Source: Nitratidesulfovibrio vulgaris str. Hildenborough (GTDB lineage Bacteria > Desulfobacterota > Desulfovibrionia > Desulfovibrionales > Desulfovibrionaceae). Taken from it: a stretch of 32,000 nt of DNA. The notes under the pieces were generated by a model. That model saw only the letters and a program-made list of their open reading frames with translations, had not been told where the DNA came from and ran no database searches. The stretch covers positions 510,001 through 542,000 of the forward strand of contig NC_002937.3 in assembly GCF_000195755.1 (NCBI RefSeq), read 5' to 3'. This document shows positions 3,001 to 29,678 of the stretch, piece by piece. Numbering within the stretch: position 1 is the first letter of the stretch; every line of letters begins with the position of its first letter. A program made the translations under genes and the position numbers.

Positions 3001-4033
3001 AAAGTTCCGGTATGACTGTGGCGGCGAGTGTGTCGAAGGCGGTTTCATCCCGGAAGAAGGTCGTCACCCCGATGAGCAGGTCGCGGAACAGGGTCTGCAC
3101 CGCTTGCGGGTCGTCACGAAGGTGCCGGGCATAACCTTCGATGTCGGCATGTTGTTCAAGCCGGATGCGGCGCATGATGCGCCGTGCGATGGTGGCCGGT
3201 TTGTAGTCGCGAAAGTCGAGCCCGCCATGGCGTTGCAGCAGCGTGAAGATGGTCTGCAGCGCGTCGGGGGCAGGGCCTCCGGAGGCGGGGTCGGCAGGCA
3301 GGCCGGGATGTTCGAACGGAAGTGGCGAGCCCGATATGAAGGCGGCGAGTATGTCCGGCATTTCGTCTGGAGTGGCAAGCACGGCAGCCCGGCAGGCCGC
3401 GGCTGCTGCTTTGGGCATGCCATCGAAAGCCGCGCTTTCGGGGAGTTGGACGAGAACCAGACCTCCGGCGGCGGAGATGGCCTCCAGCCCCGACGCCCCG
3501 TCGGTGCCGGTGCCGGAAAGGACGACCCCTGCGGCGTTCTCTCCATACCATGCGGCGAGGGAGGCGAAGAAGGTGTTGATGGGCATGGAGGGGCGGTTGT
3601 CATATGAAGACTTGTCGCGCAGGATGAAACCGTCCAGCGTTATCTCCATCTCCTTGCCGGGCGGCAACAGGTAGATGTGGTCGGGTGCCGGGCACATGCC
3701 ATCCTGCACAACGACGATGGTCATGACAGTCTGGCGGGCCAGCAGTTCATCCATGAAGCTTGGGAAATCGGGTGACAGATGCTGGATGACCACGAACGCG
3801 GCCCCGGTGGTGGTGGGCATATGCCTGAAGAGGCCCTCAAGGGCTTCCAATCCCCCCGCAGAGGCGCCTATGCCGACGACAAGGGGAAGATGCACGGCAT
3901 CATGTGTGGTGGGGTGGTGCCCGGCACGCCCCTTCGCGGCGCGATGGCTGTCGACCTGCCGAGGCACGGCATTCTCTTCCGGCAACGTGCCGGAAGGCGC
4001 TGTTGGGGGAATGTCGAGACGGGGTGCAGCCAT
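1..4033 (-). CDS. Multidomain sensor: CheB-like methylesterase + CheR-like methyltransferase + coiled coil + PAS-like repeats + HisKA/HATPase histidine kinase. The 3' end is truncated by the window edge.
   Basis: The minus-strand frame in phase with 4033 is the only frame with no ORF listed in the track across 1-4033, consistent with one ORF open to the window edge. My translation starts at ATG (complement of 4031-4033), with GGAGG 7 nt upstream: MAAPRLDIPPTAPSG. Motifs read: CheB-type PLVVGIGASAGGLEA (~3845-3885); CheR-type GEIRLWVAGCASGEEAYSLGMLLLE (~2900-2980); coiled coil VTNEELQATNEELLSANEELQATNEELHSIN (~1805-1900); H-box KSEFLANVSHELR (~545-585); G-box PFTQLDGSYTRRHSGLGLG (1-58). Confidence 0.85.
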   Translation of the reverse strand, partial: MAAPRLDIPPTAPSGTLPEENAVPRQVDSHRAAKGRAGHHPTTHDAVHLPLVVGIGASAGGLEALEGLFRHMPTTTGAAFVVIQHLSPDFPSFMDELLARQTVMTIVVVQDGMCPAPDHIYLLPPGKEMEITLDGFILRDKSSYDNRPSMPINTFFASLAAWYGENAAGVVLSGTGTDGASGLEAISAAGGLVLVQLPESAAFDGMPKAAAAACRAAVLATPDEMPDILAAFISGSPLPFEHPGLPADPASGGPAPDALQTIFTLLQRHGGLDFRDYKPATIARRIMRRIRLEQHADIEGYARHLRDDPQAVQTLFRDLLIGVTTFFRDETAFDTLAATVIPELFRKQGDRGEIRLWVAGCASGEEAYSLGMLLLEAAPQFDFTGRISIFATDVHRHSLDRASAGVYTKDSLQALSPRRLQRFFIPEGDETYRVAPELRSLVLFTQHNILADPPFTRVDLVSCRNLLIYFGVDAQERAIARLHMALRPGGVLFMGASETTGRLHPIFEPLDPRLRIFTKRPDTLGMTATHLVHPAVIDAHRLATSSPQPSERQLLRDYDALLQRFAPDGMLVDDRFAVLHFFGNGASYLTQHTGRTDRPITDMVEGDLRLALSSALQRASTTGETARFKSIRVPGNGGDRLVDVEVMPIGNKPSDGKHYHVALQSSHPVLIRPLVEPAATGHGTGLLASRVAELEAELAETRSSLRDSIEQVHVTNEELQATNEELLSANEELQATNEELHSINEELYTVNAEFERKNDQLRILGEDYAQLFDTIPIAIASLDESLRVRRFNAGMSAIFHLQPHDVGRPLQQIASCLAEPDNLFKSLALGLSEGGTHDSEARLTDGRWCQQRIHAVRDETGATEHMLLTFMDITHVKHAEAMRQEARSLDEVSRNVPGVVFKLCAPHDGNIRVEYVGGGTVELCGLSQEEIKADPHALVALFGPDVVPHILAGISATDGEGTPVDVEIPLHCTGGTKWVHVQATSTPARGGGTEWYGVAVDATERRYDATRMHNAADRYLRILDHAPMLIWRSDTTGACDWFNTTWLDFTGRTMEQEYGYGWAGGVHPDDYDRCVSIYQKAFALQQAFEMNYRLKRHDGQFRWLVDCGKPLPDLDGTFSGFIGYCYDITDAVNALESMCEASKRAEEANRTKSEFLANVSHELRTPLNGALGMLQLLELSSLSPEQRQYVTTAIRSGQNLVRLLSDILDLSRIEAGKLVIEAIPCDIRELVDEVFSTFSLDATGKGITLETTIAPGTPTYVRTDPLRLRQTLFNLVGNAVKFTEKGGVRVEFSTASMRGDAIVLFCTVRDTGPGIPEDRIESIFQPFTQLDGSYTRRHSGLGLG

Positions 4034-4246: not shown

Positions 4247-4335
4247 TGGTGCCGAAGGGGAGACTCGAACTCCCACTGGGGAACCCCAACTAGACCCTGA
4301 ACCTAGCGTGTCTACCAATTCCACCACTTCGGCGC
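4247..4335 (-). tRNA. tRNA-Leu (anticodon CAG), class II with long variable arm, encoded CCA
   Basis: The reverse complement reads GCGCCGAAGTGGTGGAATTGGTAGACACGCTAGGTTCAGGGTCTAGTTGGGGTTCCCCAGTGGGAGTTCGAGTCTCCCCTTCGGCACCA (89 nt). The acceptor stem GCGCCGA/TCGGC(A)C pairs. The anticodon stem is CTAGG/TCTAG with loop TTCAGGG (anticodon CAG). It has a GTTCGAGTC T-loop and a long extra arm typical of tRNA-Leu. Confidence 0.9.
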
Positions 4336-17065: not shown

Positions 17066-17279
17066 GGTCTCCCCCACTGTTGAGGTTCGACAGTACCCAA
17101 GCAATGGTCGGGCCTCATTGTCAGAGAAGGCATGATTTCAGTGTGTTAGGTGGTGATGTGGTTGGGTTTGAGATTCGATAGCACGATGAATTTAACATAA
17201 TGCGTATTTTTTCGACTTAAAAAATAGCATAATTGTAATTGTACGGCAGGCGACTTTCGCACCTTTTTCAATTTTCTAC

Positions 17280-17309
17280 TTGACAGCGCGAGGCGCGGGT
17301 TCGTATGAT
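17280..17309 (+). promoter_or_regulatory. Sigma70-type promoter of the aromatic amino acid superoperon
   Basis: TTGACA (17280-17285), an 18-nt spacer, then TATGAT (17304-17309). An A/T-rich UP-like tract (CACCTTTTTCAATTTTCTAC) lies immediately upstream. The element sits in an AT-rich island of an otherwise GC-rich window. Confidence 0.55.
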
Positions 17310-17354
17310 TCACATCAGCTACAAGAAAAAGGATATTGAAAGGTCAAGGGCAAC

Positions 17355-17456
17355 ATGCTTACCATCAACGCCACGTACTTCCCCACTTCCGGTGCCAGCT
17401 ATTACTGGTACTTTTTTAGCTATGGAGAAGCCCGTGGCCTGGTGGGTCGCGCCTAG
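17355..17456 (+). CDS. Leader peptide (33 aa) rich in aromatic codons; candidate attenuation sensor for Tyr/Phe/Trp
   Basis: Too short for the ORF track. ATG 17355 to TAG 17454-17456 encodes MLTINATYFPTSGASYYWYFFSYGEARGLVGRA. Nine of 33 residues are aromatic. Codons 16-23 (17400-17423: TAT TAC TGG TAC TTT TTT AGC TAT) read YYWYFFSY. AAGGG lies 5 nt upstream of the ATG. The ORF lies between the promoter and an intrinsic terminator. Confidence 0.6.
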   Translation: MLTINATYFPTSGASYYWYFFSYGEARGLVGRA

Positions 17457-17491
17457 ACCTCATTAAAGGATCAGGTGCACCGAGACAACAG

Positions 17492-17526
17492 GGGCCGCGG
17501 GCGAAAGCCAGCGGCCCTTTTCTTGT
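17492..17526 (+). terminator. Intrinsic terminator (attenuator) in the superoperon leader
   Basis: Stem GGGCCGC (17492-17498) / GCGGCCC (17511-17517), plus an inner stem GGC/GCC closed by a GAAA tetraloop (17503-17506), followed by TTTTCTTGT. Alternative pairing: GCCCGTGGCC (17430-17439, leader codons 26-28) can pair with GGCCGCGGGC (17493-17502) over 10 bp with one G-U. That would sequester the terminator 5' arm. Confidence 0.7.
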
Positions 17527-17670
17527 ATCCGGCGTCGGAGCGCGCACTGCCGCCGGAAAGGAACGAGGGGACGCCCGAACGTTCCATCAGCAGGGGATGA
17601 CACATGCGGCGGAACCGCCAATGAACGGGCGCAGCGCGCCGCAACAATGCTTCATGACGAGGATGGCATC

Positions 17671-18471
17671 ATGCACATAGGCAAGAAGATCAGAATGGAG
17701 CGGCTCTTCAACCGCACCACAGGGCGTTCGGTCATCGTTCCTCTCGATCATGGCGTGAGCGTCGGCCCCATCGACGGACTGGTGGACATGCGTGACACGG
17801 TCAATCAGGTAGCCGAAGGCGGCGCGGATGCTGTGCTCATGCACAAGGGCCTCGTGCGTTGCGGGCACCGCGAGGGCGGCCGCGACGTGGGCCTCATCGT
17901 ACATCTCTCGGCCAGCACGTCGCTGTCGCCGTTGCCCAATGCCAAGACCCTCACCGCGACGGTCGAAGACGCCATCAAGCACGGTGCTGACGGCGTGTCG
18001 GTGCACGTCAACCTCGGTGACGAGACCGAGCGCGACATGCTCGCCGACCTCGGCCGTGTGGCCACCATCGCCAACGACTGGGGTGTGCCCCTTCTGGCCA
18101 TGATGTACGCGCGCGGCCCGCGCATCCGCGACCAGTACGACCCGCAGGTGGTGGCGCATTGCGCCCGCGTGGGTGTTGAACTGGGGGCCGATGTGGTGAA
18201 GGTGCCCTACACCGGTGATATGGATACCTTCGCCCATGTGGTGCAGTCGTGCTGCGTCCCCGTGGTCATCGCAGGCGGGCCCAAGCTCGACTCCACCCGC
18301 GACTTCCTCCAGATGGTGCATGACGCCGTCCGTGCCGGGGGTTCCGGTCTTTCGGTGGGGCGCAACATCTTCCAGCATGCCCGCCCCTCGCAACTGGTCA
18401 AGGCCGTGCGCGGCCTCGTGCATGAGGACTGGGACGTGGAACAGGCCATCGCCATCGTGGGCGAGGACTAG
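17671..18471 (+). CDS. aroA': 2-amino-3,7-dideoxy-D-threo-hept-6-ulosonate (ADH) synthase, class I aldolase of the archaeal-type DHQ pathway
   Basis: [64 protein letters not shown] matches my recollection of the MJ0400-type AroA' N-terminus (RLERIFNR...VIVPMDHGVS.GP..GL). ATG at 17671 with GAGGA 8 nt upstream; the track start 17647 is 8 codons earlier. Confidence 0.85.
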
Positions 18472-18479
18472 GCGTCGCC

Positions 18480-19451
18480 ATGCGTACCATCCTTTTCAAG
18501 AGCGTCCCCTTCAGCAAGGAGGCTGTGACGCTGGCCCTCGAATCGGGCGTGGACGGCATCATCGTGCCTGAGAAACATGTGGCCCCGGTGCAGGCACTGG
18601 CCCGCTGCAAGGTGCTGTGCGACGATGCCGTCTGTACCCTCGAACTCACCGCCAAGGCGGATGAGGAGGAGGCGGCAAGCCGCCTCGCCGCCGGTGAGGA
18701 CGTGGTGCTGGCACGGGGCTGGGAAATCATCCCCGTCGAGAACCTGCTGGCACGGTCGGACAGGGTGACGGTGGAGGTGGCCTCGCTGGACGAGGCACGC
18801 CTCGCTGCTGGCATCCTCGAACGTGGCGTGTCCACCGTGGTGGTGCTGCCGCAGGCCGTGACGGAACTCAAGGCCATCGTGCAGGAACTCAAACTCTCGC
18901 AAGGGCGCATCGACCTCGCCCCCGCCGTGGTCACCGCCGTGCGGCCCGTGGGCCTCGGACACCGGGTGTGCGTCGACACCATGTCGCTGCTGCGCACGGG
19001 GCAGGGCATGCTCGTGGGCAATTCCAGCGCCTTCACCTTTCTGGTCAACGCCGAGACGGAGCACAACGAATACGTTGCGGCGCGGCCCTTCCGCATCAAC
19101 GCCGGGGCCGTCCATGCCTACGCCGTGATGCCGGGCGACCGTACCACCTACCTTGAAGAACTCCGTTCCGGCAGCGAGGTGCTCATCGTGGGGGCCGATG
19201 GCGCGACGACCATCGCCACCGTGGGCAGGCTCAAGGTCGAGGTGCGCCCCATGCTGCTGGTCGAGGCGCGCGTGGGCGACACCGTGGGGGCGGTCTTCCT
19301 GCAGAATGCCGAGACCATCCGCCTTGTGCGCGCTGACGGTACGCCCGTGAGCGTGGTGGCCCTGCGCGAGGGCGACGAGGTGCTGTGCCGTACCGACGTG
19401 GCGGGACGCCACTTCGGGATGCGCATCACCGAAGACATCAGGGAGGCCTAG
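18480..19451 (+). CDS. aroB': 3-dehydroquinate synthase II (archaeal type, MJ1249 family)
   Basis: 323-aa ORF immediately after aroA'. Its length and sequence character (MRTILFKSVPFSKEAVTLALESGVDGIIV... RPFRINAGAVHAY ...) fit the DHQ synthase II family. Assignment is strengthened by adjacency to the ADH synthase gene. Confidence 0.8.
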   Translation: MRTILFKSVPFSKEAVTLALESGVDGIIVPEKHVAPVQALARCKVLCDDAVCTLELTAKADEEEAASRLAAGEDVVLARGWEIIPVENLLARSDRVTVEVASLDEARLAAGILERGVSTVVVLPQAVTELKAIVQELKLSQGRIDLAPAVVTAVRPVGLGHRVCVDTMSLLRTGQGMLVGNSSAFTFLVNAETEHNEYVAARPFRINAGAVHAYAVMPGDRTTYLEELRSGSEVLIVGADGATTIATVGRLKVEVRPMLLVEARVGDTVGAVFLQNAETIRLVRADGTPVSVVALREGDEVLCRTDVAGRHFGMRITEDIREA

Positions 19452-19453
19452 CC

Positions 19454-20629
19454 GTGAGCGCACCCGAACCCGTGAACGGCACACCGCCTGATGTGGCGCA
19501 ACGGCTACAGGCCATCCGCGTGACCATCGACGGTCTCGACCGCGACCTGCTTGCGCTGCTCAATCGACGCGCCGCACTGAGTCTTGAGGTCGGCCGCATC
19601 AAGGCCACCGACCCCGGCATCGTCTTCCGCCCCTTCCGTGAGCGCGAGGTGTTCGACAACCTCGAAGCCGCCAATGAAGGGCCGTTGCCCGACGAACACC
19701 TGCGAGCCATCTGGCGCGAGATCATCTCCTCGTCGCGCAGCCTGCAACGCCCGCAGCGTGTGGCCTACCTCGGCCCTGAAGGCACCTTCTCGTATTTCGC
19801 AGGCATGGAGTTCCTCGGCAGGGCCATGGACTACAGGCCGCAGCCCGGTCTGCCCGACGTGTTCCGCGCCGTGCACGACCGCCAGTGCGAACTGGGCATC
19901 GTGCCGCTGGAGAACTCGTTGCAGGGTACGGTGGGGCAGAGTCTCGACCTCTTCCTGCAACACGAGGTGTTCATACAGGCCGAACTCTTCTGCCGCATCA
20001 GCCACTGCCTGCTTGGCACGGCGGCGGCACTGGCGGACATCGACACCGTGTACTCGCACCCGCAGCCGCTGGCCCAGTGCGGCGGGTGGCTGCGTGCGCA
20101 CCTGCCCAACGCCCGCATCATCCCCACCGAATCCACCGCCGCGGCAGCCCGCAGGGCGGCGGGCGAGGCGGGGGCCGCCGCCATCGGTCACCGCAGCCTC
20201 GCTGACCTTCTCGGGCTCAACGTGCTGGAACGGGGTATCGAAGACCAGCCAGACAACTGGACGCGCTTCGTGGTCATCGCCCCCGCCCCTGCCGACCAGC
20301 AGGGACGCGAGAAGACCTCCATGCTCTTCTCCCTGCCAGACAAGGCAGGTGCGCTGGCTGGAGTGCTCGAACTGCTGGCCCGCGAGGGCATCAACATGAA
20401 GAAGCTCGAATCGCGTCCCTTGCGGGGCGAGAAGTGGCAGTACGTCTTCTTCGTGGACGTGGAATGCGACCTCGGCACTGAACGGTACGCCCGTCTCGTC
20501 GAAGAACTGCGCACACTGTGCCACACGTTGCGCATTCTCGGCAGCTATCCTGTGGGGCCGCATTTCGACATGGCGGCGCATGAAGCGTTGCCCGGTCTGC
20601 CCGATCAGATAGGCCAGGGAGGCCTGTGA
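19454..20629 (+). CDS. pheA: Bifunctional chorismate mutase / prephenate dehydratase (P-protein)
   Basis: GTG at 19454 (GGGAGG 7 nt upstream), 2 nt after the aroB' stop. CM domain: LQAIRVTIDGLDRDLLALLNRRAALSLEVGRIK. PDT domain: VAYLGPEGTFSY. ACT domain: TSMLFSLPDKAGALAGVLELLAREGINMKKLESRP. Confidence 0.9.
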   Translation: MSAPEPVNGTPPDVAQRLQAIRVTIDGLDRDLLALLNRRAALSLEVGRIKATDPGIVFRPFREREVFDNLEAANEGPLPDEHLRAIWREIISSSRSLQRPQRVAYLGPEGTFSYFAGMEFLGRAMDYRPQPGLPDVFRAVHDRQCELGIVPLENSLQGTVGQSLDLFLQHEVFIQAELFCRISHCLLGTAAALADIDTVYSHPQPLAQCGGWLRAHLPNARIIPTESTAAAARRAAGEAGAAAIGHRSLADLLGLNVLERGIEDQPDNWTRFVVIAPAPADQQGREKTSMLFSLPDKAGALAGVLELLAREGINMKKLESRPLRGEKWQYVFFVDVECDLGTERYARLVEELRTLCHTLRILGSYPVGPHFDMAAHEALPGLPDQIGQGGL

Positions 20630-21948
20630 TGGAACCCGTAGTCGTCACCGCACCGCCGTCCAAGTCGCTCTCGCACCGCGCTCTCATCGGGGCGGCGCTG
20701 GCAGCAGGCGAGTCGACGGTGGAACATGTGCTCGAAAGCCGCGACCTGACCTGCACCGCCGACATCCTCCGGGCGGCGGGGGCGCACATCGAACGGCGCG
20801 CCCCCGGAAGCTACCTCGTACGCGGCGTGGCGGGCACCCCGGCAGGGGGCTTCGAGGCCCCCGTATCGTGCGATGTGCACGAGTCGGGCACCACCTGCCG
20901 TCTGCTCACGGCCGTGCTGGCGGCGGGCATGGGGCGTTTCCGCATCCATGGTGCTCCGCGCATGCACGAACGGCCCATCGGGGAACTCACCGACGCGCTG
21001 GCATCACTTGGCGTGCAGATAGCCTTCGAGGCGCGCGCGGGCTTTCCGCCGCTCGTCATCGACGCTGCCGGTATGCGCGGTGGCGAGGTCTCCATCGGCA
21101 TGGACGAGTCGAGCCAGTATCTTTCCGGCCTGTTGCTTGCCGCGCCGCTGACGCAGGGCATGACCGTGAACGTGGCTGGCAAGAGCGTCGTGTCATGGCC
21201 CTATGTGGGGCTCACCCTCCAGACCCTCGAGGATTTCGGCATCGACTTCACCGTGGAGACGCGTGACGCCGTCGACGCCCCGTGGGGCGCGGTGGACTGG
21301 CGTAGCCTGCACGAGGCCGTGCCGGGGCTGGTGCGCTTCAGGGTACGTCCCGGCATGTACCGCGCAGGCAGCTACAGGGTGGAGGGCGACTGGTCGGGCG
21401 CAAGCTACTTTCTCGCCGCAGGTGCCGTGGGCCCTCGCCCTGTGCGCGTGGAGGGGCTGCGCGTCGACTCCCTGCAGGGCGACCGGGCGTTGCTCGACAT
21501 CCTCACCGCCATGGGTGCCGACATCCGCCCCGGAGAGGGGCATGTGGTGGTGCATCCCGCCCCGTTGCATGGCGTCGAGGTGGACATGGGCCACTGCCCC
21601 GACCTTGTGCCCACGGTGGCGGCGGTGGCGGCATTCGCCACGGGGCGTACTGTCGTCCGTAACGTGGCCCACCTGCGTATCAAGGAAAGCGACCGCATCG
21701 CCGCCCCGGTGGGAGAATTGCGCAGGGCGGGCGTGAACGCCGAGGAACGCGCCGACGGGCTGGTGGTGCAGGGCGGTGCCCTCGCCACTGAACCGGGTAC
21801 GCTCTTCTCCGCCCACGGCGACCATCGCATGGCCATGAGTCTTGCCCTGCTTGGGCTTGGCGGGGTGGATGTGCGCCTTGACGACCCTTCGTGTGTGAGC
21901 AAGTCGTTCCCGCATTTCTGGGAACTATGGGAGAAGGTGAGGGCATGA
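20629..21948 (+). CDS. aroA: 3-phosphoshikimate 1-carboxyvinyltransferase (EPSP synthase)
   Basis: APPSKSLSHRALIGAAL N-terminal motif, with the HGAPRMHERPIGEL and KESDRIAA motifs. ATG 20629 overlaps the pheA TGA (GTGATGG). AGGGAGG lies 6 nt upstream. Confidence 0.9.
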   Translation: MEPVVVTAPPSKSLSHRALIGAALAAGESTVEHVLESRDLTCTADILRAAGAHIERRAPGSYLVRGVAGTPAGGFEAPVSCDVHESGTTCRLLTAVLAAGMGRFRIHGAPRMHERPIGELTDALASLGVQIAFEARAGFPPLVIDAAGMRGGEVSIGMDESSQYLSGLLLAAPLTQGMTVNVAGKSVVSWPYVGLTLQTLEDFGIDFTVETRDAVDAPWGAVDWRSLHEAVPGLVRFRVRPGMYRAGSYRVEGDWSGASYFLAAGAVGPRPVRVEGLRVDSLQGDRALLDILTAMGADIRPGEGHVVVHPAPLHGVEVDMGHCPDLVPTVAAVAAFATGRTVVRNVAHLRIKESDRIAAPVGELRRAGVNAEERADGLVVQGGALATEPGTLFSAHGDHRMAMSLALLGLGGVDVRLDDPSCVSKSFPHFWELWEKVRA

Positions 21949-22721
21949 GCGCCGTGAAGATAGCCCTCGTGGGTGACAAGGGACGCATGGGGCGTCTGCT
22001 GACGTCGCGCTTCTCCGCTGCCGGGTGCGAGGTCGCCGGTGTGGACAGGCCCCTGACGCCCGACACCGTGCGCCCGGCGGTGCAGGGGGCGGATGTGGTC
22101 ATCCTGTGTGTGCCCGTGGAGGTGCTGGCAGAGGTACTCTCGATTGTCGCACCGCTGCTTTCTCCCAAACAAGTGCTTGCGGACATCACGTCAGTTAAGG
22201 TACGACCAATGGAAGTGATGCAGGCGTTTCACGCCGGGCCGGTGGTGGGAACCCATCCCCTTTTCGGCCCGGACCCGCAGGACGACCATCTGCCTGTGGC
22301 TGTGACGCCCGGTTCATCCGCCCGTGACGCGGATGTAACACTCGTGGAGCAGTGTTTTCGCATGATCGGCTGTGACACCTTCCGTACCACGGCGCAAGAG
22401 CACGACCGTGCCGCCGCCATGATACAGGGGCTGAACTTCATCTCCAGCGTCGCCTATCTCGCTACGCTGGCCCACAATGAAGAGCTTCTGCCCTTCGTCA
22501 CGCCCTCCTTCCGCCGCCGTCTCGACGCGGCCCGCAAGATGCTCACCGAAGACGCAGCCCTGTTCGAGGGCATGTTCGAAGCCAATCCTGCCAGTCAGGA
22601 CGCCGTCCGTTCGTTCCGTTCCTTCCTGAACATCGCTTCCGCCGGCGATGTCGACGTGCTCGTCGACCGCGCACGCTGGTGGTGGCGCACGCATGATGAC
22701 AGGGGAGGAGCACGCCAGTAA
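21945..22721 (+). CDS. tyrA: Prephenate dehydrogenase
   Basis: ATG 21945 overlaps the aroA stop (ATGA). Rossmann N-terminus KIALVGDKGRMGRLL, plus ADITSVK and GTHPLFGP motifs. The C-terminal tail reads ...VDRARWWWRTHDDRGGARQ. Confidence 0.85.
   Translation: MSAVKIALVGDKGRMGRLLTSRFSAAGCEVAGVDRPLTPDTVRPAVQGADVVILCVPVEVLAEVLSIVAPLLSPKQVLADITSVKVRPMEVMQAFHAGPVVGTHPLFGPDPQDDHLPVAVTPGSSARDADVTLVEQCFRMIGCDTFRTTAQEHDRAAAMIQGLNFISSVAYLATLAHNEELLPFVTPSFRRRLDAARKMLTEDAALFEGMFEANPASQDAVRSFRSFLNIASAGDVDVLVDRARWWWRTHDDRGGARQ
22677..22711 (+). promoter_or_regulatory. Candidate Trp-sensing element inside the tyrA 3' end: three tandem Trp codons plus an antiterminator 5' segment
   Basis: TGG TGG TGG at 22677-22685, in the tyrA frame and 11 codons before TAA (22719-22721). 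GGGGAGG (22702-22708) pairs with CCTCCCC (22763-69). With C22762 bulged, AGC (22709-22711) pairs with GCT (22759-22761). These partners are the 5' arm and loop of the downstream terminator. Confidence 0.5.
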
Positions 22722-22752
22722 CAGGCGTACGGCACCGTCATATCGTTGTTGC

Positions 22753-22791
22753 AGCCGCGCTCCCTCCCCGGGGGCGCGGCTTTTTCTTTTT
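22753..22791 (+). terminator. Strong intrinsic terminator between tyrA and trpE (internal operon attenuator)
   Basis: GCCGCGCTCCC (22754-22764) / GGGGGCGCGGC (22770-22780): 11-bp stem with one G-U and a 5-nt loop TCCCC, followed by TTTTTCTTTTT (22781-22791). It lies 32 nt after the tyrA stop and 62 nt before the trpE ATG. Confidence 0.75.
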
Positions 22792-22852
22792 CGCCACAAA
22801 AGGGGCAAACGCCCGGGACGGCATCCCGGAAAGGCGACACGAGGAGAACGAC

Positions 22853-24451
22853 ATGGAGATGGACGACGCGAAAAGGCCCGCAGGCGCGAAACGGCGCACG
22901 GGCGGTGAAGAGGACGCAGGTCGTGTCGCCGGTCACGCCACGACGCAGGACAATGCTCATGCGATGCCCAGCACGCAAGCCGGCACGCAAGCCGGGGGCG
23001 CAGGTGCCCATGCGGATGCGAATCCGGCTGGATGCCCGGATGGGCGCATCGTGCTGCGGCAGTCGTGCAGCCTGCTTGAGGGCGATGTGGATACGCCCAT
23101 CAGTCTGTTTCTGGGCATGGTGGGGTCGGGGCAGGGCATCCTGCTCGAGAGTGCCGAGGTGGACGGACGCTGGGGGCGTTACAGCATCATCGGCTTCAAC
23201 TTCCTTCTGCGTCTCGGCTGTGCGGCAGGGCGGCTTGAGGTGGCAGTACGCGACCCGCGTCTTGCGGCACTGAAGGAGCTGGAGGGGATGCCCTTCATCG
23301 AGGGCGTGCGTGCCGTCATGCGGCGGCTGACCATCGAACCGGACCCCGACTTCGCCAACCAGCCGCCCATCACGCGAGCCCTGTACGGGTACATGGGCTA
23401 CGGCGTGGCAGGTCTGCTCGAACCCAAACTCGCCCCGGTGCTACGGGCGGAAGCGGCAGAGGCGTGTCTTGCCCTGCCGGGCACGGTGGTGGTCTTCGAC
23501 CATCTCTACAACCGCCTGACCATGCTCTCGCTCACCGACCGCAACGGTCTGCGCATCGACCGTTCGGTGCTCGACCGTGCGCCGCAGACGCCGGAGGTGG
23601 GGCCCACCCGCGCGGTGCCCGACGAGTCAGCCTACAAGCGCGCCGTGGAGCGCACCCGCGAGATGATCCGGCAGGGCGAGGCCATACAGGTGGTGCTCTC
23701 CACGCGGTTCCAGGCGTCCTTCAATGGCGACCCCTTCACGCTGTACCGCAGACTGCGACGCATCAACCCCTCGCCCTACATGTTCTTCATGCGCCTGCCG
23801 GGTGTCTCGCTGCTGGGTTCGTCGCCGGAGGTGATGGTGCGTTGCAGCAAGGGGCGGTTGCAGGTCAGCCCCATCGCCGGAACCCGTCCGCGCGGGGTCG
23901 ATGACGTCGAAGACGCGCGCCTCGCGGCGGAATTGCTCGATGACCCCAAGGAACGCGCCGAACATGTCATGCTGGTCGACCTCGGGCGCAACGACCTCGG
24001 GCGCATCGCCGCCCCCGGTACGGTGCAGGTCGAGCGGTTCATGGAGGTGGAGAAGTTCTCGCACGTCATGCACCTCACCTCGCGGGTGACCGCAGACCTC
24101 GCAGAGGGGCACGACGCACTGGACGTGCTGACGGCCACGTTTCCGGCAGGCACGGTGAGTGGTGCCCCCAAGGTGCGCGCCATGGAAATCATCGCCGAGG
24201 CCGAAGGACAGCCGCGCGGCCCCTATGCCGGGTGCATAGGCTGGTTCGGACTCGACCGTGACAGCGTGAGTCTCGACACCGGCATCACCATCCGCAGCAT
24301 GTGGGTGCGCGAGGGGCAGGTGCACTGGCAGGCGGGGGCGGGCATCGTGTTCGACTCGAAACCCGCCGCGGAATGGAAGGAGTGCTGCAACAAGGCGGCG
24401 GCCATGCGTGCCGCACTGGATGGAGGCTGTCATGTTCCTGCTCATCGATAA
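22853..24451 (+). CDS. trpE: Anthranilate synthase component I
   Basis: GAGGAG lies 6 nt upstream of ATG 22853. Conserved core: LLESAEVDGRWGRYSIIG, SPYMFFMRL, GSSPEVMVR, IAGTRPRG, DPKERAEHVMLVDLGRNDLGR, FPAGTVSGAPKVRAMEII, RGPYAGCIGW. The first ~55 aa are a low-complexity extension, so an alternative start at M38 (22964) is possible. Confidence 0.9.
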   Translation: MEMDDAKRPAGAKRRTGGEEDAGRVAGHATTQDNAHAMPSTQAGTQAGGAGAHADANPAGCPDGRIVLRQSCSLLEGDVDTPISLFLGMVGSGQGILLESAEVDGRWGRYSIIGFNFLLRLGCAAGRLEVAVRDPRLAALKELEGMPFIEGVRAVMRRLTIEPDPDFANQPPITRALYGYMGYGVAGLLEPKLAPVLRAEAAEACLALPGTVVVFDHLYNRLTMLSLTDRNGLRIDRSVLDRAPQTPEVGPTRAVPDESAYKRAVERTREMIRQGEAIQVVLSTRFQASFNGDPFTLYRRLRRINPSPYMFFMRLPGVSLLGSSPEVMVRCSKGRLQVSPIAGTRPRGVDDVEDARLAAELLDDPKERAEHVMLVDLGRNDLGRIAAPGTVQVERFMEVEKFSHVMHLTSRVTADLAEGHDALDVLTATFPAGTVSGAPKVRAMEIIAEAEGQPRGPYAGCIGWFGLDRDSVSLDTGITIRSMWVREGQVHWQAGAGIVFDSKPAAEWKECCNKAAAMRAALDGGCHVPAHR

Positions 24452-25061
24452 CTACGACTCGTTCACCTTCAATCTGGTGCAGGCGTTCTACGGTCTGGGC
24501 CTCGCCCCGGTGGTGGTGCGCAACGACGACCCCGCCCTTGTGGCATGCGCGACACGGCCCGACCTCGACATGGTGTGCATCTCGCCGGGGCCAAGCCATC
24601 CGCGCAACGCCGGTGGGTGCCTCGCCTTTCTCGACGTGCTGCCCCGTACGGTGCCTGTCCTCGGCGTGTGCCTCGGGCATCAGGTTCTGGGATTGTACGC
24701 GGGGGCCACGGTGGAGGTGGGGCCGCGCATCATGCACGGCAAGACCTCGGACATCACCCATGACGGCGCGGGACTCTTCGCGGGACTGCCGCAGCCCATG
24801 ACGGTGGGGCGGTACCATTCGCTCATCGTGCGGGCCGAAGAGAAGCCCGACCTTCTCGAGGTGACCGCCCGTACGCCCGAAGGCGAGGTCATGGCCATGC
24901 GCTACCGCGACAGGCCGTGGGTGGGCGTACAGTTCCATCCCGAATCGGTGCTCACGCCGGACGGTGTGCGGCTTCTGGGCAATTTCCCGGCAATGACGGG
25001 CGGCAGCTGCCCCCGCATGACGCCGCATGGTGCGACCGTGCGGCAGGAGGTGACGGCATGA
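24432..25061 (+). CDS. trpG: Anthranilate synthase component II (glutamine amidotransferase)
   Basis: MFLLIDNYDSFTFNLVQ N-terminus, catalytic GVCLGHQ, and HSL..., GVQFHPES. ATG 24432 with GGAGG 4-5 nt upstream. It overlaps the trpE 3' end by 20 nt. Confidence 0.9.
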   Translation: MFLLIDNYDSFTFNLVQAFYGLGLAPVVVRNDDPALVACATRPDLDMVCISPGPSHPRNAGGCLAFLDVLPRTVPVLGVCLGHQVLGLYAGATVEVGPRIMHGKTSDITHDGAGLFAGLPQPMTVGRYHSLIVRAEEKPDLLEVTARTPEGEVMAMRYRDRPWVGVQFHPESVLTPDGVRLLGNFPAMTGGSCPRMTPHGATVRQEVTA

Positions 25062-26056
25062 CCGCCATAGCGACCATCCTCGAGACGCTTGCCACCGGGT
25101 GCGACCTGCATCCCGAGATGGCGGGCGCAGGCTTCGCCAGTCTCATGGACGGCGACATGACACCGGCGCAGGCGGGCTCGTTCCTCATGGGACTGCGCAT
25201 GAAGGGCGAGACCGCCGACGAGATGACAGAGGCCGTGCGCGCGGCGCTGGCCCGTGCAGTGACGGTGCGCGGTGTCGATGCGCCAAGCATCGACATCGTG
25301 GGAACGGGCGGCGACGGCCGTTCGTCGTTCAATTGTTCCACCGCCACGGCACTCACGCTGGCGGGCATGGGCCACAAGGTGGTCAAGCACGGCAACCGGG
25401 CGGTCTCGTCCAGTTGCGGCAGCGCCGACGCCATCGAAGGGCTGGGCCTGCCGCTGGAGGTGGACGCTGCCGACGTGCCCGCCATGCTGCATGAGCGCGG
25501 TTTCGCCTTTCTCTTCGCGCCGCGCTTCCATCCCGCCTTCAGGCACGTGATGCCCATCCGCCGCGAACTGGGTGTGCGTACCCTCTTCAACCTGCTGGGG
25601 CCGCTTCTCAACCCGGCTCGGCCTACGCACATGCTGCTTGGCGTGGCGCGCGAGTCGCTCATGCCGCTCATGGCCGAGACACTGCGGCGTACCGGCGCGG
25701 CCCGCGCTGCCGTGGTGTTCGGGGCGGGCGGCTATGACGAGTTGACGCCGCTGGGCCCCGCGCGGGTGCTGTTCCTGCGTGACGGCATCGTGTCCGAACA
25801 TGAGGTCGATCCTGCTCGCTACGGTATCGCGCCATGCACCCCCGAAGACCTCGTGGTGCGTGACAGGGAGGAGGCCGTGCGGGTGCTGCGTGAACTCCTT
25901 TCGGGCGCAGGCCCGCAGGCCATGCGCGACATGCTGGTATTCAACGTGGGCATGGCCCTGCACCTGCTGCACGACGACAGGCCCCTTGAAGACTGCATGA
26001 ACGAGGCACGCCGCGCCGTGCACGCAGGCGCGGGAAGGAAGGTGCTCCATGCTTGA
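25058..26056 (+). CDS. trpD: Anthranilate phosphoribosyltransferase
   Basis: ATG 25058 overlaps the trpG stop (ATGA), with GGAGG upstream. Motifs: DIVGTGGDG, FNCSTA, KHGNRAVSS.CGSAD, FLFAP.FHPA, LGPLLNPA. Confidence 0.9.
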   Translation: MTAIATILETLATGCDLHPEMAGAGFASLMDGDMTPAQAGSFLMGLRMKGETADEMTEAVRAALARAVTVRGVDAPSIDIVGTGGDGRSSFNCSTATALTLAGMGHKVVKHGNRAVSSSCGSADAIEGLGLPLEVDAADVPAMLHERGFAFLFAPRFHPAFRHVMPIRRELGVRTLFNLLGPLLNPARPTHMLLGVARESLMPLMAETLRRTGAARAAVVFGAGGYDELTPLGPARVLFLRDGIVSEHEVDPARYGIAPCTPEDLVVRDREEAVRVLRELLSGAGPQAMRDMLVFNVGMALHLLHDDRPLEDCMNEARRAVHAGAGRKVLHA

Positions 26057-26822
26057 ACGTTTCCGCGCCGCCAAGCGGCATGAGGTGGACAAACTGGAGC
26101 AATGCGCCCGCCGTGGCGGTCTGCCTGCGCCTTTCGCAGGCCCGCGCCCCGCGTTCGGTACTGCCCTGCGCGGCGACGGTCTTGCCGTCATCGCCGAGTA
26201 CAAGCGGGCCTCGCCCTCATGCGGGGTCATCGACACGAAGCTGACTCCCGAAGAGGTGGCCACGGCCTATGAGGCGGGCGGGGCCACCGCCATCTCGGTA
26301 CTCACCGAGGAAGTGCACTTCAGGGGTGAGCTTTCATACCTCGGCCGCATGACCGCGCCGGGTCTGCCCCTGCTGCGCAAGGACTTCATCATGCACCCCT
26401 TGCAGGTGACGGCCACGGCCGCCACACCCGCCTCGGCCCTGCTGCTCATCGTGCGCCTCACGCCCGACGCGGCCCTGTTGCGCGACCTGCGTGAACAGGC
26501 AGAGGCGCAAGGCATGGACGCCGTGGTGGAGGTCTTCGACACCGACGACCTCGACATCGCAAGGGCATCGGGGGCGCGCATCATTCAGGTCAACGCCCGC
26601 GACCTCGACACGCTCAAGGTGAGCATGCCTGCCTGCCTTGGCATGGGCGTCTTGCGCGATGCGGCGGAGACGTGGGTGGCGGCCAGCGGGATGTCTGCCC
26701 CGGAACACCTCGCCGCCGCAGCCACCGCCGGGTACGACGCGGCACTGGTGGGCACGGCCCTGATGCGCGGGGGCGACCCCGGTGCGGCCCTGCGTGCACT
26801 GCTGGGGCGGGAGGCGGCGTGA
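26049..26822 (+). CDS. trpC: Indole-3-glycerol phosphate synthase
   Basis: Motifs: AVIAEYKRASPS.G, AISVLTEE..F.G, LLRKDFI, GMDAVVEV, IIQVNARDL. It overlaps trpD by 8 nt. GGAAGGAAGG lies upstream. Confidence 0.9.
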   Translation: MLERFRAAKRHEVDKLEQCARRGGLPAPFAGPRPAFGTALRGDGLAVIAEYKRASPSCGVIDTKLTPEEVATAYEAGGATAISVLTEEVHFRGELSYLGRMTAPGLPLLRKDFIMHPLQVTATAATPASALLLIVRLTPDAALLRDLREQAEAQGMDAVVEVFDTDDLDIARASGARIIQVNARDLDTLKVSMPACLGMGVLRDAAETWVAASGMSAPEHLAAAATAGYDAALVGTALMRGGDPGAALRALLGREAA

Positions 26823-27724
26823 CGTCCCGGACGGATGTTTCGCCTCTGCTGCCCGCCCTGCCGGGGGGGATGGCGTCCCCGGCGCTGTCGCCGGATGAAC
26901 CTGATGAACCGGGTGTATCGGGGGAATCGGGTGCATCGGGTGAACCGGGTGCCAGCACGTCTCGCCAGACCCGCCTGCGGGTCAAGGTGTGCGGACTCAC
27001 CCGGCAAGAGGATGCCGCCAGCTGCGCACGTCTTGGCGTACACCTTGGCGGGTTCATCTTCCACGCGTCGAGTCCCCGAAACGTCGACCCGGCGTGCGTG
27101 GCGGACATGGACACGGGGAGGATGCTGCGGGTGGGCGTGTTCGTGCGTCAGTCCGTGGATGAGGTGGTGCGCACGATGCGCGTGGCGCGTCTGCACATGG
27201 CCCAGCTGCATGGCGGGCAGGATGTGGCGTTCTGCAAGGAACTTGTCGCGGCACTGGCAGACATCCTGCCCGAGGTGCTCTCGGGGATGTCGCCCTCGTC
27301 GGGCGGTGAACACGCCGACTCGCCGCACGACATGGCCCGTGGCCGCCTTCTGCGTGCCGTGTGGCCCGCAAGACATGCCACCACAGTGTCGTTTGAGCAT
27401 GAACTTGCGACGCTGGCCCCGTATGTCGGGCACTTCGTGTTCGATGCGGGCACTGCGGGCGGCGGTCATGGCGCGACACTGCCGTGGGATGCGCTGGAGG
27501 GGATGTCCTGCCCGCGCCCGTGGCTGCTGGCCGGGGGCCTCGGGCCGGATAACGTGGAAAGGGCCGTGCGGGCCTGTCACCCGTGGGGGGTCGATCTCAA
27601 TTCCGGCGTCGAATCGGCCCCCGGCATCAAGGACATGCAACGAATCGAAAACGCCCTCGTCGCCCTTGCGGCGTGCGGCGATGTCAGCGGGCCTGAAGCC
27701 CGCATCGGAGATGCAAGGTCATGA
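26819..27724 (+). CDS. trpF: Phosphoribosylanthranilate isomerase, unusually long (301 aa) with an N-terminal repeat extension and an internal insertion
   Basis: GTG 26819 overlaps the trpC stop (GTGA), with GGGAGG upstream. The TrpF core begins at [13 protein letters not shown] (~26975). Further motifs: [60 protein letters not shown] 26870 (MASPALS...) is another possible start. No in-frame start lies closer to the core. Confidence 0.8.
26894..26956 (+). repeat. Seven tandem imperfect 9-bp repeats, codon-aligned within the trpF 5' extension
   Basis: GATGAACCT GATGAACCG GGTGTATCG GGGGAATCG GGTGCATCG GGTGAACCG GGTGCCAGC encodes [21 protein letters not shown]. Confidence 0.7.
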
Positions 27725-28908
27725 AGAAAGGTTACTTCGGCGATTTCGGCGGCAGGTTCGTGCCTGAACTGCTGATGCCGCCCCTGATGGAGATTGAGGC
27801 GGCCATGCGCGACATCATGCCCACGCAGGCATTCCGCCATGAGCTTGACGACCTGCTGCACAACTTCGCAGGGCGTGAGACCCCCCTCACCCGGTGCGAC
27901 ACCCTGTCGCGTGAACTCGGCTGCACCCTGTGGCTGAAACGTGAAGACCTGCTGCACACCGGGGCGCACAAGGTGAACAACACCCTCGGGCAGGCGTTGC
28001 TGGCCCGGCGCATGGGCAAGACGCGTCTCGTGGCGGAGACCGGCGCGGGGCAGCATGGCGTGGCCACCGCAGCGGCGGCGGCACGGCTGGGGCTGTCGTG
28101 CATCGTCTTCATGGGGGCGGTGGATGTGGAACGCCAGTCCGCCAACGTCATGCGCATGAAGCTGCTGGGGGCGGAGGTCGTGCCCGTGGAAAGCGGCACG
28201 CGCACCCTCAAGGACGCCATCAACGAGACCCTGCGCTACTGGATAGCGGAACAGGGCAGTACGCACTACTGCTTCGGCACGGCGGCGGGGCCGCACCCCT
28301 TCCCCACGCTGGTGCGCGACTTTCAGGCTGTCATCGGTCACGAGACCCGGCGGCAGATGCTGGAACGCACGGGTGCGCTGCCCGACATGGTGGTGGCGTG
28401 CGTGGGCGGCGGTTCCAATGCCATCGGCATGTTCCACGCCTTCGTGGACGATGCGGACGTGCGCATCGTGGGTGTCGAGGCCGCAGGCACGGGCGAACCG
28501 GGGTGCTACAACTCCGCACCCATCAACCTTGGGTCGCCGGGGGTGCTGCATGGCAACCGTACCATGCTGCTACAGGACGGCGACGGACAGATACTGCCGT
28601 CGCACTCCGTCTCGGCGGGACTCGACTACCCCGGTGTGGGGCCGGAACATGCCCATCTCGGGGCCACGGGGCGCGTGGTCTACGGCATGGTCACCGACAC
28701 GCAGGCGCTTGCCGCATTCAAGGCACTCACCCGCGCCGAGGGCATCATCCCCGCGCTGGAATCGTCGCACGCGGTGGCATGGGTGCTTGAGAACCCGCAT
28801 CTGCTGCCGCAGGGCGGCAATGTGGTGGTGAACCTTTCGGGACGTGGCGACAAGGATATGGACATCGTGCGGGAACACCTGTTCCCCAGCTTGGGAGGCA
28901 AGGCATGA
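27721..28908 (+). CDS. trpB: Tryptophan synthase beta chain
   Basis: [14 protein letters not shown]., [16 protein letters not shown] (PLP lysine), [10 protein letters not shown] and GGGSNAIG motifs. The ATG overlaps the trpF stop (ATGA). Confidence 0.95.
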
Positions 28909-29678
28909 GCGCGTCACGTCTCGAACGGCGCATTCGCGAGGCACAGGCGGCGGGGCGTCCCGCCCTCATCCCCTTTCTGACGGCGGGCTTCCCGACGAAA
29001 GAACGCTTCTGGGATGAACTCGAGGCCCTCGACGCGGCAGGGGCCGACATCATCGAAGTGGGCGTGCCCTTCTCCGACCCCGTGGCGGACGGCCCGGTGG
29101 TGGCGGCCGCCTCGCAGCGCGCGCTGGAGTCCGGTGTGACGCTGCGCTGGATCATGGACGGACTGGCGGCCCGCAAGGGCAGGCTGCGTGCAGGGCTTGT
29201 GCTGATGGGGTACCTCAACCCGTTCATGCAGTACGGCTTCGAGCGTTTCGTGAGCGATGCGGCGGACGCAGGCGTGGCGGGGTGCATCATCCCCGACCTG
29301 CCACTGGATGAGGACGCCGACCTGCGGGCACTGCTTGCCGCGCGGGACATGGACCTCATAGCGCTGGTGGGGCCCAACACGGGCGAAGGGCGTATGCGCG
29401 AGTATGCCGCCGTCGCCTCGGGCTACGTCTATGTGGTGTCGGTCATGGGCACCACGGGCGTGCGGGACGGCCTGCCCGTGGAGGTGGCGGACACGCTGGC
29501 GCGGGCACGTCAGTGCTTCTCCATCCCCGTGGCGCTCGGTTTCGGCATCAGCCGTCCAGCGCAACTGGAGGGGCTGTCACATCCGCCCGACGCCGTCATC
29601 TTCGGTTCTGCCCTGTTGCGTCATCTCGACGCGGGCGGCGACGCCGCCTCGTTCATGAAGGCGTGGGCGGAGAGATAA
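28905..29678 (+). CDS. trpA: Tryptophan synthase alpha chain
   Basis: [39 protein letters not shown] and GFGIS motifs. The ATG overlaps the trpB stop (ATGA). Confidence 0.95.

Follow-up and report, generated by a model that had tools for sequence, protein, structure and literature searches.

The window analysed here comprises 32,000 nucleotides (nt) of Nitratidesulfovibrio vulgaris str. Hildenborough (contig NC_002937.3, positions 510,001 to 542,000) and contains an operon of 12 genes that covers the phenylalanine (Phe), tyrosine (Tyr) and tryptophan (Trp) branches of aromatic amino acid biosynthesis. The operon is preceded by a leader region with a promoter, a short open reading frame (ORF) rich in aromatic codons and an intrinsic terminator (Table 1). 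Our subject is this leader region, a candidate transcription attenuator of the operon, together with a second candidate at the tyrA-trpE junction within it. An earlier examination of the letters alone (hereafter the sequence-only reading) had described an aro-trp operon starting with archaeal-type genes of the dehydroquinate pathway, and family matches for ten of the operon genes confirmed that identity. The names trpF and trpA are putative assignments, based on ORF positions and on the gene order of relatives.

Table 1. Coordinates of the leader, operon and tyrA-trpE junction features in the window (position 1 is its first letter).
Feature	Position	Strand	Remarks
Sigma-70-type promoter	17280..17309	+	TTGACA 17280-17285, 18-nt spacer, TATGAT 17304-17309
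Shine-Dalgarno-like AAGGG	17347..17351	+	3 nt (CAA) ahead of leader ATG; putative function
Leader ORF, 33 codons, MLTINATYFPTSGASYYWYFFSYGEARGLVGRA	17355..17456	+	ATG 17355, TAG 17454-17456
1:2 hairpin (anti-antiterminator)	17362..17445	+	-35.4 kcal/mol, z = -4.69
Regulatory codon run Tyr-Tyr-Trp-Tyr-Phe-Phe-Ser-Tyr	17400..17423	+	proposed ribosome stall site
Region 2, GCCCGUGGCCU, codons Ala-Arg-Gly-Leu	17430..17440	+	antiterminator 5' strand
Spacer hairpin over leader stop codon, within antiterminator loop	17445..17481	+	lineage-specific; most relatives lack it and have shorter spacers
Region 3	17490..17502	+	terminator 5' arm; 17492-17502 doubles as antiterminator 3' strand
Region 4 and U-tract UUUUCUUGU	17507..17526	+	terminator 3' arm 17507-17519; U-tract 17518-17526
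aroA' (2-amino-3,7-dideoxy-D-threo-hept-6-ulosonate (ADH) synthase)	17671..18471	+	TIGR01949, 5e-135; first gene under the proposed regulation
Rest of operon: aroB' (3-dehydroquinate synthase II), pheA (chorismate mutase/prephenate dehydratase), aroA (5-enolpyruvylshikimate-3-phosphate synthase), tyrA, trpE, trpG, trpD, trpC, (trpF), trpB, (trpA)	18480..29678	+	family matches for ten operon genes
Trp codons TGG TGG TGG in TyrA C-terminal tail (...RARWWWRTHDDRGGARQ*)	22677..22685	+	sequence
Candidate antiterminator strand GGGGAGGAGCACGCC, last tyrA codons	22702..22716	+	pairs with 22759-22769
tyrA stop codon	22719-22721	+	
Intrinsic terminator, stem 22753-22781 followed by TTTTCTTTTT	22753..22791	+	12 pairs, 10 of them G-C

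The leader promoter matches the consensus at 11 of 12 positions, and the 2-kb region holds three promoter-like sites against 0.3 expected from shuffled sequences. Transcription is predicted to start near 17316, about 7 nt past the TATGAT box, with a 5' untranslated region (UTR) of about 39 nt. Seven of the eight codons of the regulatory run (TAT TAC TGG TAC TTT TTT AGC TAT) are aromatic; in all six frames of the window it is the only stretch with at least six aromatic codons in eight, and a stretch with seven in eight occurred in 0 of 200 dinucleotide-preserving shuffles of the window. When the sequence was re-read, every coordinate that had been proposed for the promoter, the ORF, the aromatic run and the hairpin proved right. 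The ORF had been taken as unannotated; however, its peptide is identical to GenBank AAS94942.1 (UniProt Q72EV9) of Nitratidesulfovibrio (Desulfovibrio) vulgaris Hildenborough, where it bears the name hypothetical protein and is not identified as a leader peptide. This entry and the peptide of a relative are named only "hypothetical" or "uncharacterized protein", and searches of Pfam and NCBIfam with five diverse leader peptides, at E values up to 10, returned 0 relevant families.

Downstream of the promoter the RNA can form three helices, here named 1:2, 2:3 and 3:4. The 1:2 hairpin, which pairs 17362-17367 with 17440-17445, 17370-17375 with 17433-17438 and 17378-17381 with 17427-17430, encloses the aromatic codons and sequesters region 2. 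The terminator (3:4) consists of an outer stem (17490-17498/17511-17519) and an inner stem (17500-17502/17507-17509) closed by a GAAA loop and separated by a 1x1 mismatch of G17499 and A17510, and its U-tract follows directly; because of this internal mismatch a simple terminator scan misses 17490-17526. Its energy is -24.8 kcal/mol (z = -4.35 against shuffles). In the antiterminator (2:3), GCCCGUGGCC(U) at 17430-17440 pairs with GGGGCCGCGGGC at 17492-17502 over 11 base pairs (bp) including G-U pairs, so that the 10-bp pairing first noticed (17430-17439/17493-17502) holds in the folding and is extended. The antiterminator is the minimum-free-energy structure of 17424-17506 (-42.1 kcal/mol, z = -4.10), and in the window it and the terminator hairpin are mutually exclusive. 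The enumeration of alternative folds, which the sequence-only reading had left to computation, thus yielded all three helices, each well below the energies of shuffles, and the fold of the whole leader has z = -5.47. With no ribosome present, the minimum-free-energy leader combines 1:2 with the terminator.

In the computed folds, the position of a ribosome on the leader decides which of these helices can form. We folded only the RNA downstream of the ribosome, codon by codon, the first free base being set 12 nt downstream of the A-site codon's first base; this footprint (A site +12/+13) is an assumption whose edge is uncertain by about 3 nt, and the folding is at equilibrium while the real decision is kinetic. 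With the A site at 17409-17418, which frees the RNA from 17421-17430 onwards, a 10-11 bp antiterminator is the minimum-free-energy structure, with a probability of 0.45-0.91. With the A site at 17421 or beyond, or at the stop codon, the terminator has a probability of 0.89-0.99. Equilibrium folding with the ribosome represented as a ribosome-sized unpaired block, in which pairs may span the ribosome, gave the terminator everywhere and was judged physically meaningless.

A search with the aroA' protein, limited to one genome per species, returned 65 loci. The short ORF, the aromatic run and the same terminator are present at 64 of 64 bacterial aroA' loci, on the same strand and directly upstream, which answers positively the comparison of orthologous operons that had been suggested, and they are absent from the single archaeal locus. 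An ORF with at least five aromatic residues in eight lies within about 400 nt upstream of aroA' at 57 loci, and at 7 more the leader ORF and terminator lie about 1 kb upstream because of a tandem aroA' duplication; the run of locus L040 is weaker. The loci are labelled Nitratidesulfovibrio, Solidesulfovibrio, Halodesulfovibrio, Oleidesulfovibrio, Desulfonatronovibrio, Desulfonatronum, Desulfonauticus, Desulfocurvus, Mailhella, Desulfomicrobiaceae and Desulfohalobiaceae. Judged from these sequences, the element is conserved across Desulfovibrionales.

The conservation extends to the alternative pairings. In an alignment of 53 distinct sequences (A1), which are related, so that independent changes are fewer than the counts imply, the terminator is near-identical across loci (GGGCCGC(G/A)GGC, loop, GCC(G/A)GCGGCCC, T-run), with pairing in 98.8% of cells and four pairs changed on both sides. 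For the antiterminator the paired cells amount to 97.5%, as opposed to 37-46% when the partner columns are slid by 1-3 positions. At column pair 151-221, 33 sequences have C-G, 18 have U-A and 2 have U-G. Since column 221 faces a non-pairing base (the 1x1 mismatch) in the terminator of 48 of the 53 sequences, its complementarity to the leader codon (Arg CGY or Cys UGY) can serve the antiterminator only. Mean energies over the family are balanced, at -24.0 kcal/mol for the terminator hairpin and -22.8 kcal/mol for the 2:3 duplex. To approximate co-transcriptional folding at the moment when region 4 is still missing, we truncated the RNA directly behind region 3. In 52 of 53 sequences the probability of the antiterminator was then 0.8-0.9 at each ribosome position up to the last one or two aromatic codons and dropped to 0 no more than two codons later; the sequence that deviates is a misaligned one from Mailhella. 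This sharp drop means that the aromatic run always ends where the ribosome starts to cover region 2.

Two further observations were made around the same leaders. At some loci a "region 5", 10-30 nt past the T-tract, resembles region 3 and is complementary to terminator arm 4, e.g. GGGTCGCCGGC; examples are L025:318-328, L036, L051, L059, L018 and L056, and the A/G variation of region 4 is matched by T/C in region 5. Its complementarity is above chance at 19 of 60 loci, the window not being among them. We found no support for a masking of the aroA' ribosome-binding site by free region 5, mean accessibility being 0.49 versus 0.52. Tandem aroA' genes behind one leader occur at L006, L008, L010, L011, L012, L043 and L052 (about 2100-3800), and also at L069 and L072.

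The spacing between promoter and leader ORF is also constrained. Of 56 distinct relatives, 55 have a perfect TTGACA ahead of the leader ORF, and in 42 of the 56 its end is 29-32 nt from the leader ATG, a distance made up of a 17-18 nt spacer, a 6-nt -10 box and a further 6-8 nt. Thus, promoter and leader start codon are both fixed, and transcription would start at or next to the ATG, so that those leader mRNAs would be leaderless. If so, the leaders of most relatives would be a natural system for leaderless translation coupled to attenuation. The spacing is 67-69 nt (5' UTR roughly 37-39 nt) in the window, other Nitratidesulfovibrio, Halodesulfovibrio and L015, and 91 nt in L002; in the window lineage and Halodesulfovibrio the long spacing is accompanied by a Shine-Dalgarno-like sequence.

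Several features of the alignment indicate that the run is read as codons. With positions counted from the first codon of region 2 (n = 53), positions -9 to -3 are 77-100% aromatic, and F, Y and W are interchangeable there: position -6 is F in 19 sequences, W in 18 and Y in 16, and position -8 is F in 21, Y in 20 and W in 11. Positions -2 and -1 are almost never aromatic. Synonymous codons alternate within the runs (TTT 173, TTC 34; TAT 87, TAC 33), and frame 0 is 83% aromatic and free of stops, as against 24% for the other two frames and 41 stops in frame +2. All three aromatic residues occur in 51 of the 53 distinct leaders, with means per run of 3.9 Phe, 2.3 Tyr and 1.5 Trp. The N-terminus of the peptide varies in length and sequence, and its tail, Ala-(Arg/Cys)-Gly, is conserved because it translates region 2 (GCC-YGY-GGY).

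These data bear on two other explanations of the element. According to the first, the terminator is controlled by a trans-acting factor, such as an RNA-binding protein, uncharged tRNA or a small molecule, and the aromatic ORF is incidental to a U-rich motif. The U-rich run UUUUAUUUUUGGU is indeed conserved at the nucleotide level too, an attenuator was predicted here in a 2005 database from structure alone, and translation of the leader is itself deduced from sequence. Nevertheless, conservation follows the reading frame and the amino-acid class and not the nucleotides, as seen in the F/Y/W exchanges, the synonymous variation and the lack of stops in frame 0; the leader ATG keeps its fixed distance to the promoter and the run its fixed end at region 2. 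Moreover, no candidate RNA family emerged: at gathering thresholds the window had no match to T-box (RF00230), Trp_leader (RF00513) or the His, Thr and Leu leaders of Rfam, and at E values up to 10 the stretch 17150-17700 had no T-box, riboswitch or amino-acid leader match, giving only weak matches driven by the terminator hairpin. A T-box, suspected from a GGUGG-like motif near 17440, was ruled out by these scans. We consider control by such a factor very improbable. On the opposite strand, 17487-17624 gave a sub-threshold match to BjrC80, a small RNA of Bradyrhizobiaceae (30.5 bits against a gathering threshold of 80), which is most likely due to the GC hairpins around the terminator as they appear on that strand.

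According to the second, the ORF encodes a small functional aromatic or hydrophobic peptide (a membrane peptide, a toxin or a trans-acting peptide) and the hairpin is its own terminator. The ORF is conserved and annotated as a protein, and some leader peptides are reported to have trans functions (peTrpL of Sinorhizobium). However, the N-terminus is highly variable and the run keeps only its aromatic class, the conserved A-(R/C)-G tail is explained by the pairing of GCC-YGY-GGY with the terminator arm, the five leader peptides searched match no Pfam or NCBIfam family, and the element always stands directly upstream of aroA' on the same strand. This explanation seems to us most improbable.

The observed elements, their stability and mutual exclusivity, their conservation with covariation and the constraint on codon class all agree with the leader-peptide attenuator sensing Tyr, Trp and Phe that the sequence-only reading had proposed, and the nature of the operon and the ribosome-position folding support it as well. 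At the sequence level the following defining features of this type of control are present: a short ORF, end-product codons, an intrinsic terminator, an exclusive antiterminator and, computed with the assumed footprint, the appropriate ribosome geometry. We are therefore confident that the element is a classical ribosome-mediated leader-peptide transcription attenuator of the whole aroA'-aroB'-pheA-aroA-tyrA-trpEGDCFBA operon, which most likely would be switched on only when Phe, Tyr or Trp runs short.

In the proposed mechanism, transcription would begin about 7 nt past the TATGAT box and a ribosome would translate the 33-codon leader as RNA polymerase proceeds. When charged tRNA-Tyr, tRNA-Trp and tRNA-Phe are plentiful, the ribosome would pass the aromatic codons, cover region 2 and reach the stop codon; region 3 would be left with region 4 only, the terminator would form and transcription would stop at the U-tract, near 17520-17526. 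When any one of these charged tRNAs is scarce, the ribosome would stall within the aromatic run, the 1:2 helix being broken and region 2 free. Region 2 would then pair with region 3 once this is made, no terminator would form and the polymerase would enter the operon. Without translation, 1:2 and 3:4 would both form and transcription would terminate. In one comparison of RNA-seq data from D. hydrothermalis, the ten genes of the orthologous cluster shift their expression jointly.

The arrangement resembles that of E. coli trpL and pheL, which share the promoter-proximal ORF with end-product codons, the 1:2/2:3/3:4 helices and the U-tract, and in which region 2 is exposed by a ribosome halted at the regulatory codons but blocked by one that has moved past them. 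The leader described here differs from these in mixing Phe, Tyr and Trp codons, in having no sequence or Rfam relationship with them, in carrying region 2 inside the ORF, 14-24 nt before the stop codon, and in preceding a fused aro-phe-tyr-trp operon of 12 genes that starts with archaeal-type aroA'/aroB'. The integration of several amino acids of the same operon by one leader is known from enterobacterial thrL (threonine, isoleucine) and ilvL/ivbL (isoleucine, leucine, valine). Those leaders sense other amino acids, are not homologous and have interspersed codons, whereas the codons form a near-uninterrupted block here. Mixed aromatic codons are found in AroR, upstream of aroF (3-deoxy-D-arabino-heptulosonate 7-phosphate (DAHP) synthase) in Corynebacterium glutamicum (Neshat et al. 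2014, as summarised in PMC11802643), where, according to that summary, Phe-Tyr-Phe codons likewise attenuate the first committed gene of the common pathway. As summarised there, AroR has three regulatory codons and no Trp, in contrast to the 7-8 codons and the three residues of nearly all the leaders described here. The first enzymes are not homologous (DAHP synthase versus ADH synthase) and the phyla are different; sequence similarity is not expected. The sequence-only reading had called the leader an unusual form of attenuation: its mechanism is classical, and it is the specificity for three aromatics in one run that is uncommon, with AroR as a precedent for mixed aromatic codons.

The element is partly anticipated in the literature. 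No description was found in the full-text literature on Desulfovibrio leader peptides and attenuators or under the locus tags, although one may exist elsewhere, and the element is undescribed in comparative studies of cis-regulatory RNAs and proteobacterial regulons. Russian-language comparative work on attenuation may cover delta-proteobacteria. According to a large comparative study, only five of the proteobacterial regulators considered have orthologues in Deltaproteobacteria, and TrpR and TyrR are described there as absent outside Gammaproteobacteria. Song et al. 2005 (BMC Biol 3:13), who call the D. vulgaris supraoperon novel, list a "putative attenuator" before it in their Table 7, taken from Merino's attenuator database. 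Locus and organism are the same, and very probably the terminator/antiterminator pair is too. In the part of the paper available to us, this listing is a structure-based prediction given without leader peptide, regulatory codons, effector or conservation.

Some points weigh against the attenuator as we propose it. The Shine-Dalgarno sequence of the window leader (AAGGG at 3-nt spacing) is weak. Moreover, with the A site at 17400-17406 a local hairpin (17419-17425/17432-17438) retains the terminator at equilibrium, so stalls at the first three codons, including the sole Trp codon at 17406, keep the terminator and the sensing of Trp is the least secure of the three. In some relatives, e.g. Desulfonatronovibrio, the full-length equilibrium favours the terminator at all ribosome positions, so that the switch must be kinetic, that is, co-transcriptional. 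The 1:2 helix is modest across the family, with a mean pairing probability of 0.69 versus 0.55 for shuffled sequences and individual significance in 17 of 53. Finally, we infer translation of the leader, stalling, termination in vivo (which would give an RNA of about 200 nt) and the sensing of each amino acid from the sequence.

The weak point at the Trp codon raises the question whether the attenuator, though real, effectively responds to one or two aromatics, e.g. Phe and Tyr, the Trp codon being merely tolerated and Trp control being exerted elsewhere, such as at the tyrA-trpE junction. A stall at 17406 gives no antiterminator at equilibrium with the assumed footprint, a separate element with Trp codons sits before trpE, and at four loci, where the leader precedes a non-canonical operon or a stand-alone aroA' paralogue, it has no Trp codon at all. 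AroR, with its Phe-Tyr-Phe leader, is reported in the summary available to respond to Phe limitation and not to Tyr availability. On the other hand, at least one Trp codon, and often two, is present in 51 of the 53 distinct leaders, and it is kept at L070 and L075, whose operons end at tyrA and have no trp genes, in keeping with a sensor that serves the common pathway. When the RNA is truncated after region 3, the antiterminator is also allowed by a stall at any codon of the run, and the footprint edge may be off by some 3 nt. We regard a response restricted in this way as unlikely, and favour an attenuator that responds to all three amino acids. The simpler rule that the leader Trp codon tracks the trp genes of the operon was rejected, as it is broken by these two operons ending at tyrA.

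Among the exceptions, two genomes (L057 and L064) have an additional aroA' gene, a paralogue that stands alone and is equipped with a separate promoter, terminator and leader, and the runs of these leaders (VFFAGFYY, NFFGFYYF) contain Phe and Tyr and no Trp codons. Such paralogues recall the isoenzyme-specific control of DAHP synthases.

For an order to which model sulfate reducers and gut Desulfovibrio belong, a three-aromatic attenuator would offer a regulatory logic of aromatic amino acid biosynthesis that is open to test. It would indicate that classical attenuation reaches operons built on the archaeal-type aroA'/aroB' entry to the shikimate pathway, and that one leader is able to carry codons for each of the three end products when a pathway branches. 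The peptide entries could be given new names, and the 53-sequence alignment could serve as the basis of a family model for the RNA or the peptide.

A candidate for a second, Trp-specific attenuator of the operon lies at the tyrA-trpE junction (22677-22853). The terminator there ends 60 nt before the trpE ATG at 22853, and GGGGAGGAGC (22702-22711), in the last codons of tyrA, pairs with GCUCCCUCCCC (22759-22769), which is the 5' arm and loop of the terminator, in a fold made without the 3' arm (z = -2.1). Three consecutive Trp codons (WWW) lie 17 nt upstream of this candidate antiterminator strand. The geometry is that of E. coli trpL, in that a stall at WWW would free the strand and a ribosome at the stop codon would cover it; when ribosome positions were scanned, three species gave a clean result, and that for the window was noisy.

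Comparison with relatives is consistent with such a role. A strong terminator and a G-rich tail strand forming an 11-14 bp duplex with its 5' arm are present at 7 of 7 loci where trpE follows tyrA (the window, L068, D. mangrovi, Oleidesulfovibrio, Halodesulfovibrio, Desulfocurvus and L077), and the G-rich complementary tail is absent from 5 of 5 loci where tyrA is the last gene. Column-wise covariation could not be applied, because the pairing register shifts between species (alignment A2), and it was replaced by a matrix of same-species versus cross-species duplex energies. In this matrix the two most diverged species favour their own terminator arm (-19.0 versus -11.7 to -16.0 kcal/mol, and -23.2 versus -12.4 to -16.4 kcal/mol). 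Of 120 TyrA homologues (53-98% identity), 114 carry WWW and, after it, a hypervariable tail, and a TyrA metagenome scan returned only 3 loci. However, WWW is also kept at 5 of 5 loci without trpE after tyrA, so it may be structural or a relic; in the solved structures examined the TyrA C-terminus is not covered.

One of the loci with tyrA last, L070 (a Logan metagenome contig), has the TyrA tail WWWKK* and, just past the stop codon (L070:6793-6870), a terminator formed by GGGGAAGGGAGCG...CGCTTCCCTTCCCC and TTTT. This terminator resembles the region 2/region 3 pair of the tyrA-trpE antiterminator of other species. Speculatively, a former antiterminator may have become the operon terminator after loss of the trp genes.

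There are partial parallels to the junction element in other bacteria. In rph-pyrE of E. coli, translation of a full-length upstream gene decides the fate of an intercistronic terminator, and pyrE senses UTP through polymerase-ribosome coupling. The tyrA-trpE element likewise uses a full-length upstream gene instead of a dedicated mini-ORF, but the three Trp codons of the TyrA tail would make its switch amino-acid specific. In the aro supraoperon of B. subtilis, the internal trp leader is controlled by TRAP, which binds (G/U)AG repeats; there too a larger aromatic supraoperon encloses the trp genes, and a second, Trp-specific point of termination comes immediately ahead of trpE. In the present case the Rfam scan gave no match, no search aimed at TRAP-type (G/U)AG repeats having been made.

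It is about an even chance, in our judgement, that the operon is under two attenuators in series, the Phe/Tyr/Trp leader at 17355 and then the Trp element at the tyrA-trpE junction, with the TyrA tail as sensor. In the first tier, the leader would open the whole operon upon shortage of any aromatic amino acid; in the second, the TyrA-tail sensor would allow trpEGDCFBA to be transcribed only if Trp specifically is short. Compatible with a second control point, only trpE, trpG and trpD pass the threshold in another comparison of the D. hydrothermalis RNA-seq data. If true, the junction element would explain how one long operon serves three amino acids without overproduction of Trp. An amino-acid-specific attenuator in the coding end of a biosynthetic enzyme gene, of which we found no description, would also be a new variant of attenuation.

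The start of the first operon gene had been placed at the ATG at 17647, which opens the aroA' ORF. Its homologues begin at the equivalent of the ATG at 17671 (MHIGK, MHLGK or MLLGK; MHIGKK... in the window), which is preceded by GAGGA at 17659-17663, and the true start is thus probably 17671. The 145 nt between the terminator and this ATG hold more hairpins (e.g. 17531-17558), which are unconserved outside Nitratidesulfovibrio. Elsewhere in the window, on the reverse strand, positions 4250-4333 encode an 84-nt tRNA whose variable arm is long (Rfam RF00005, 50.7 bits).

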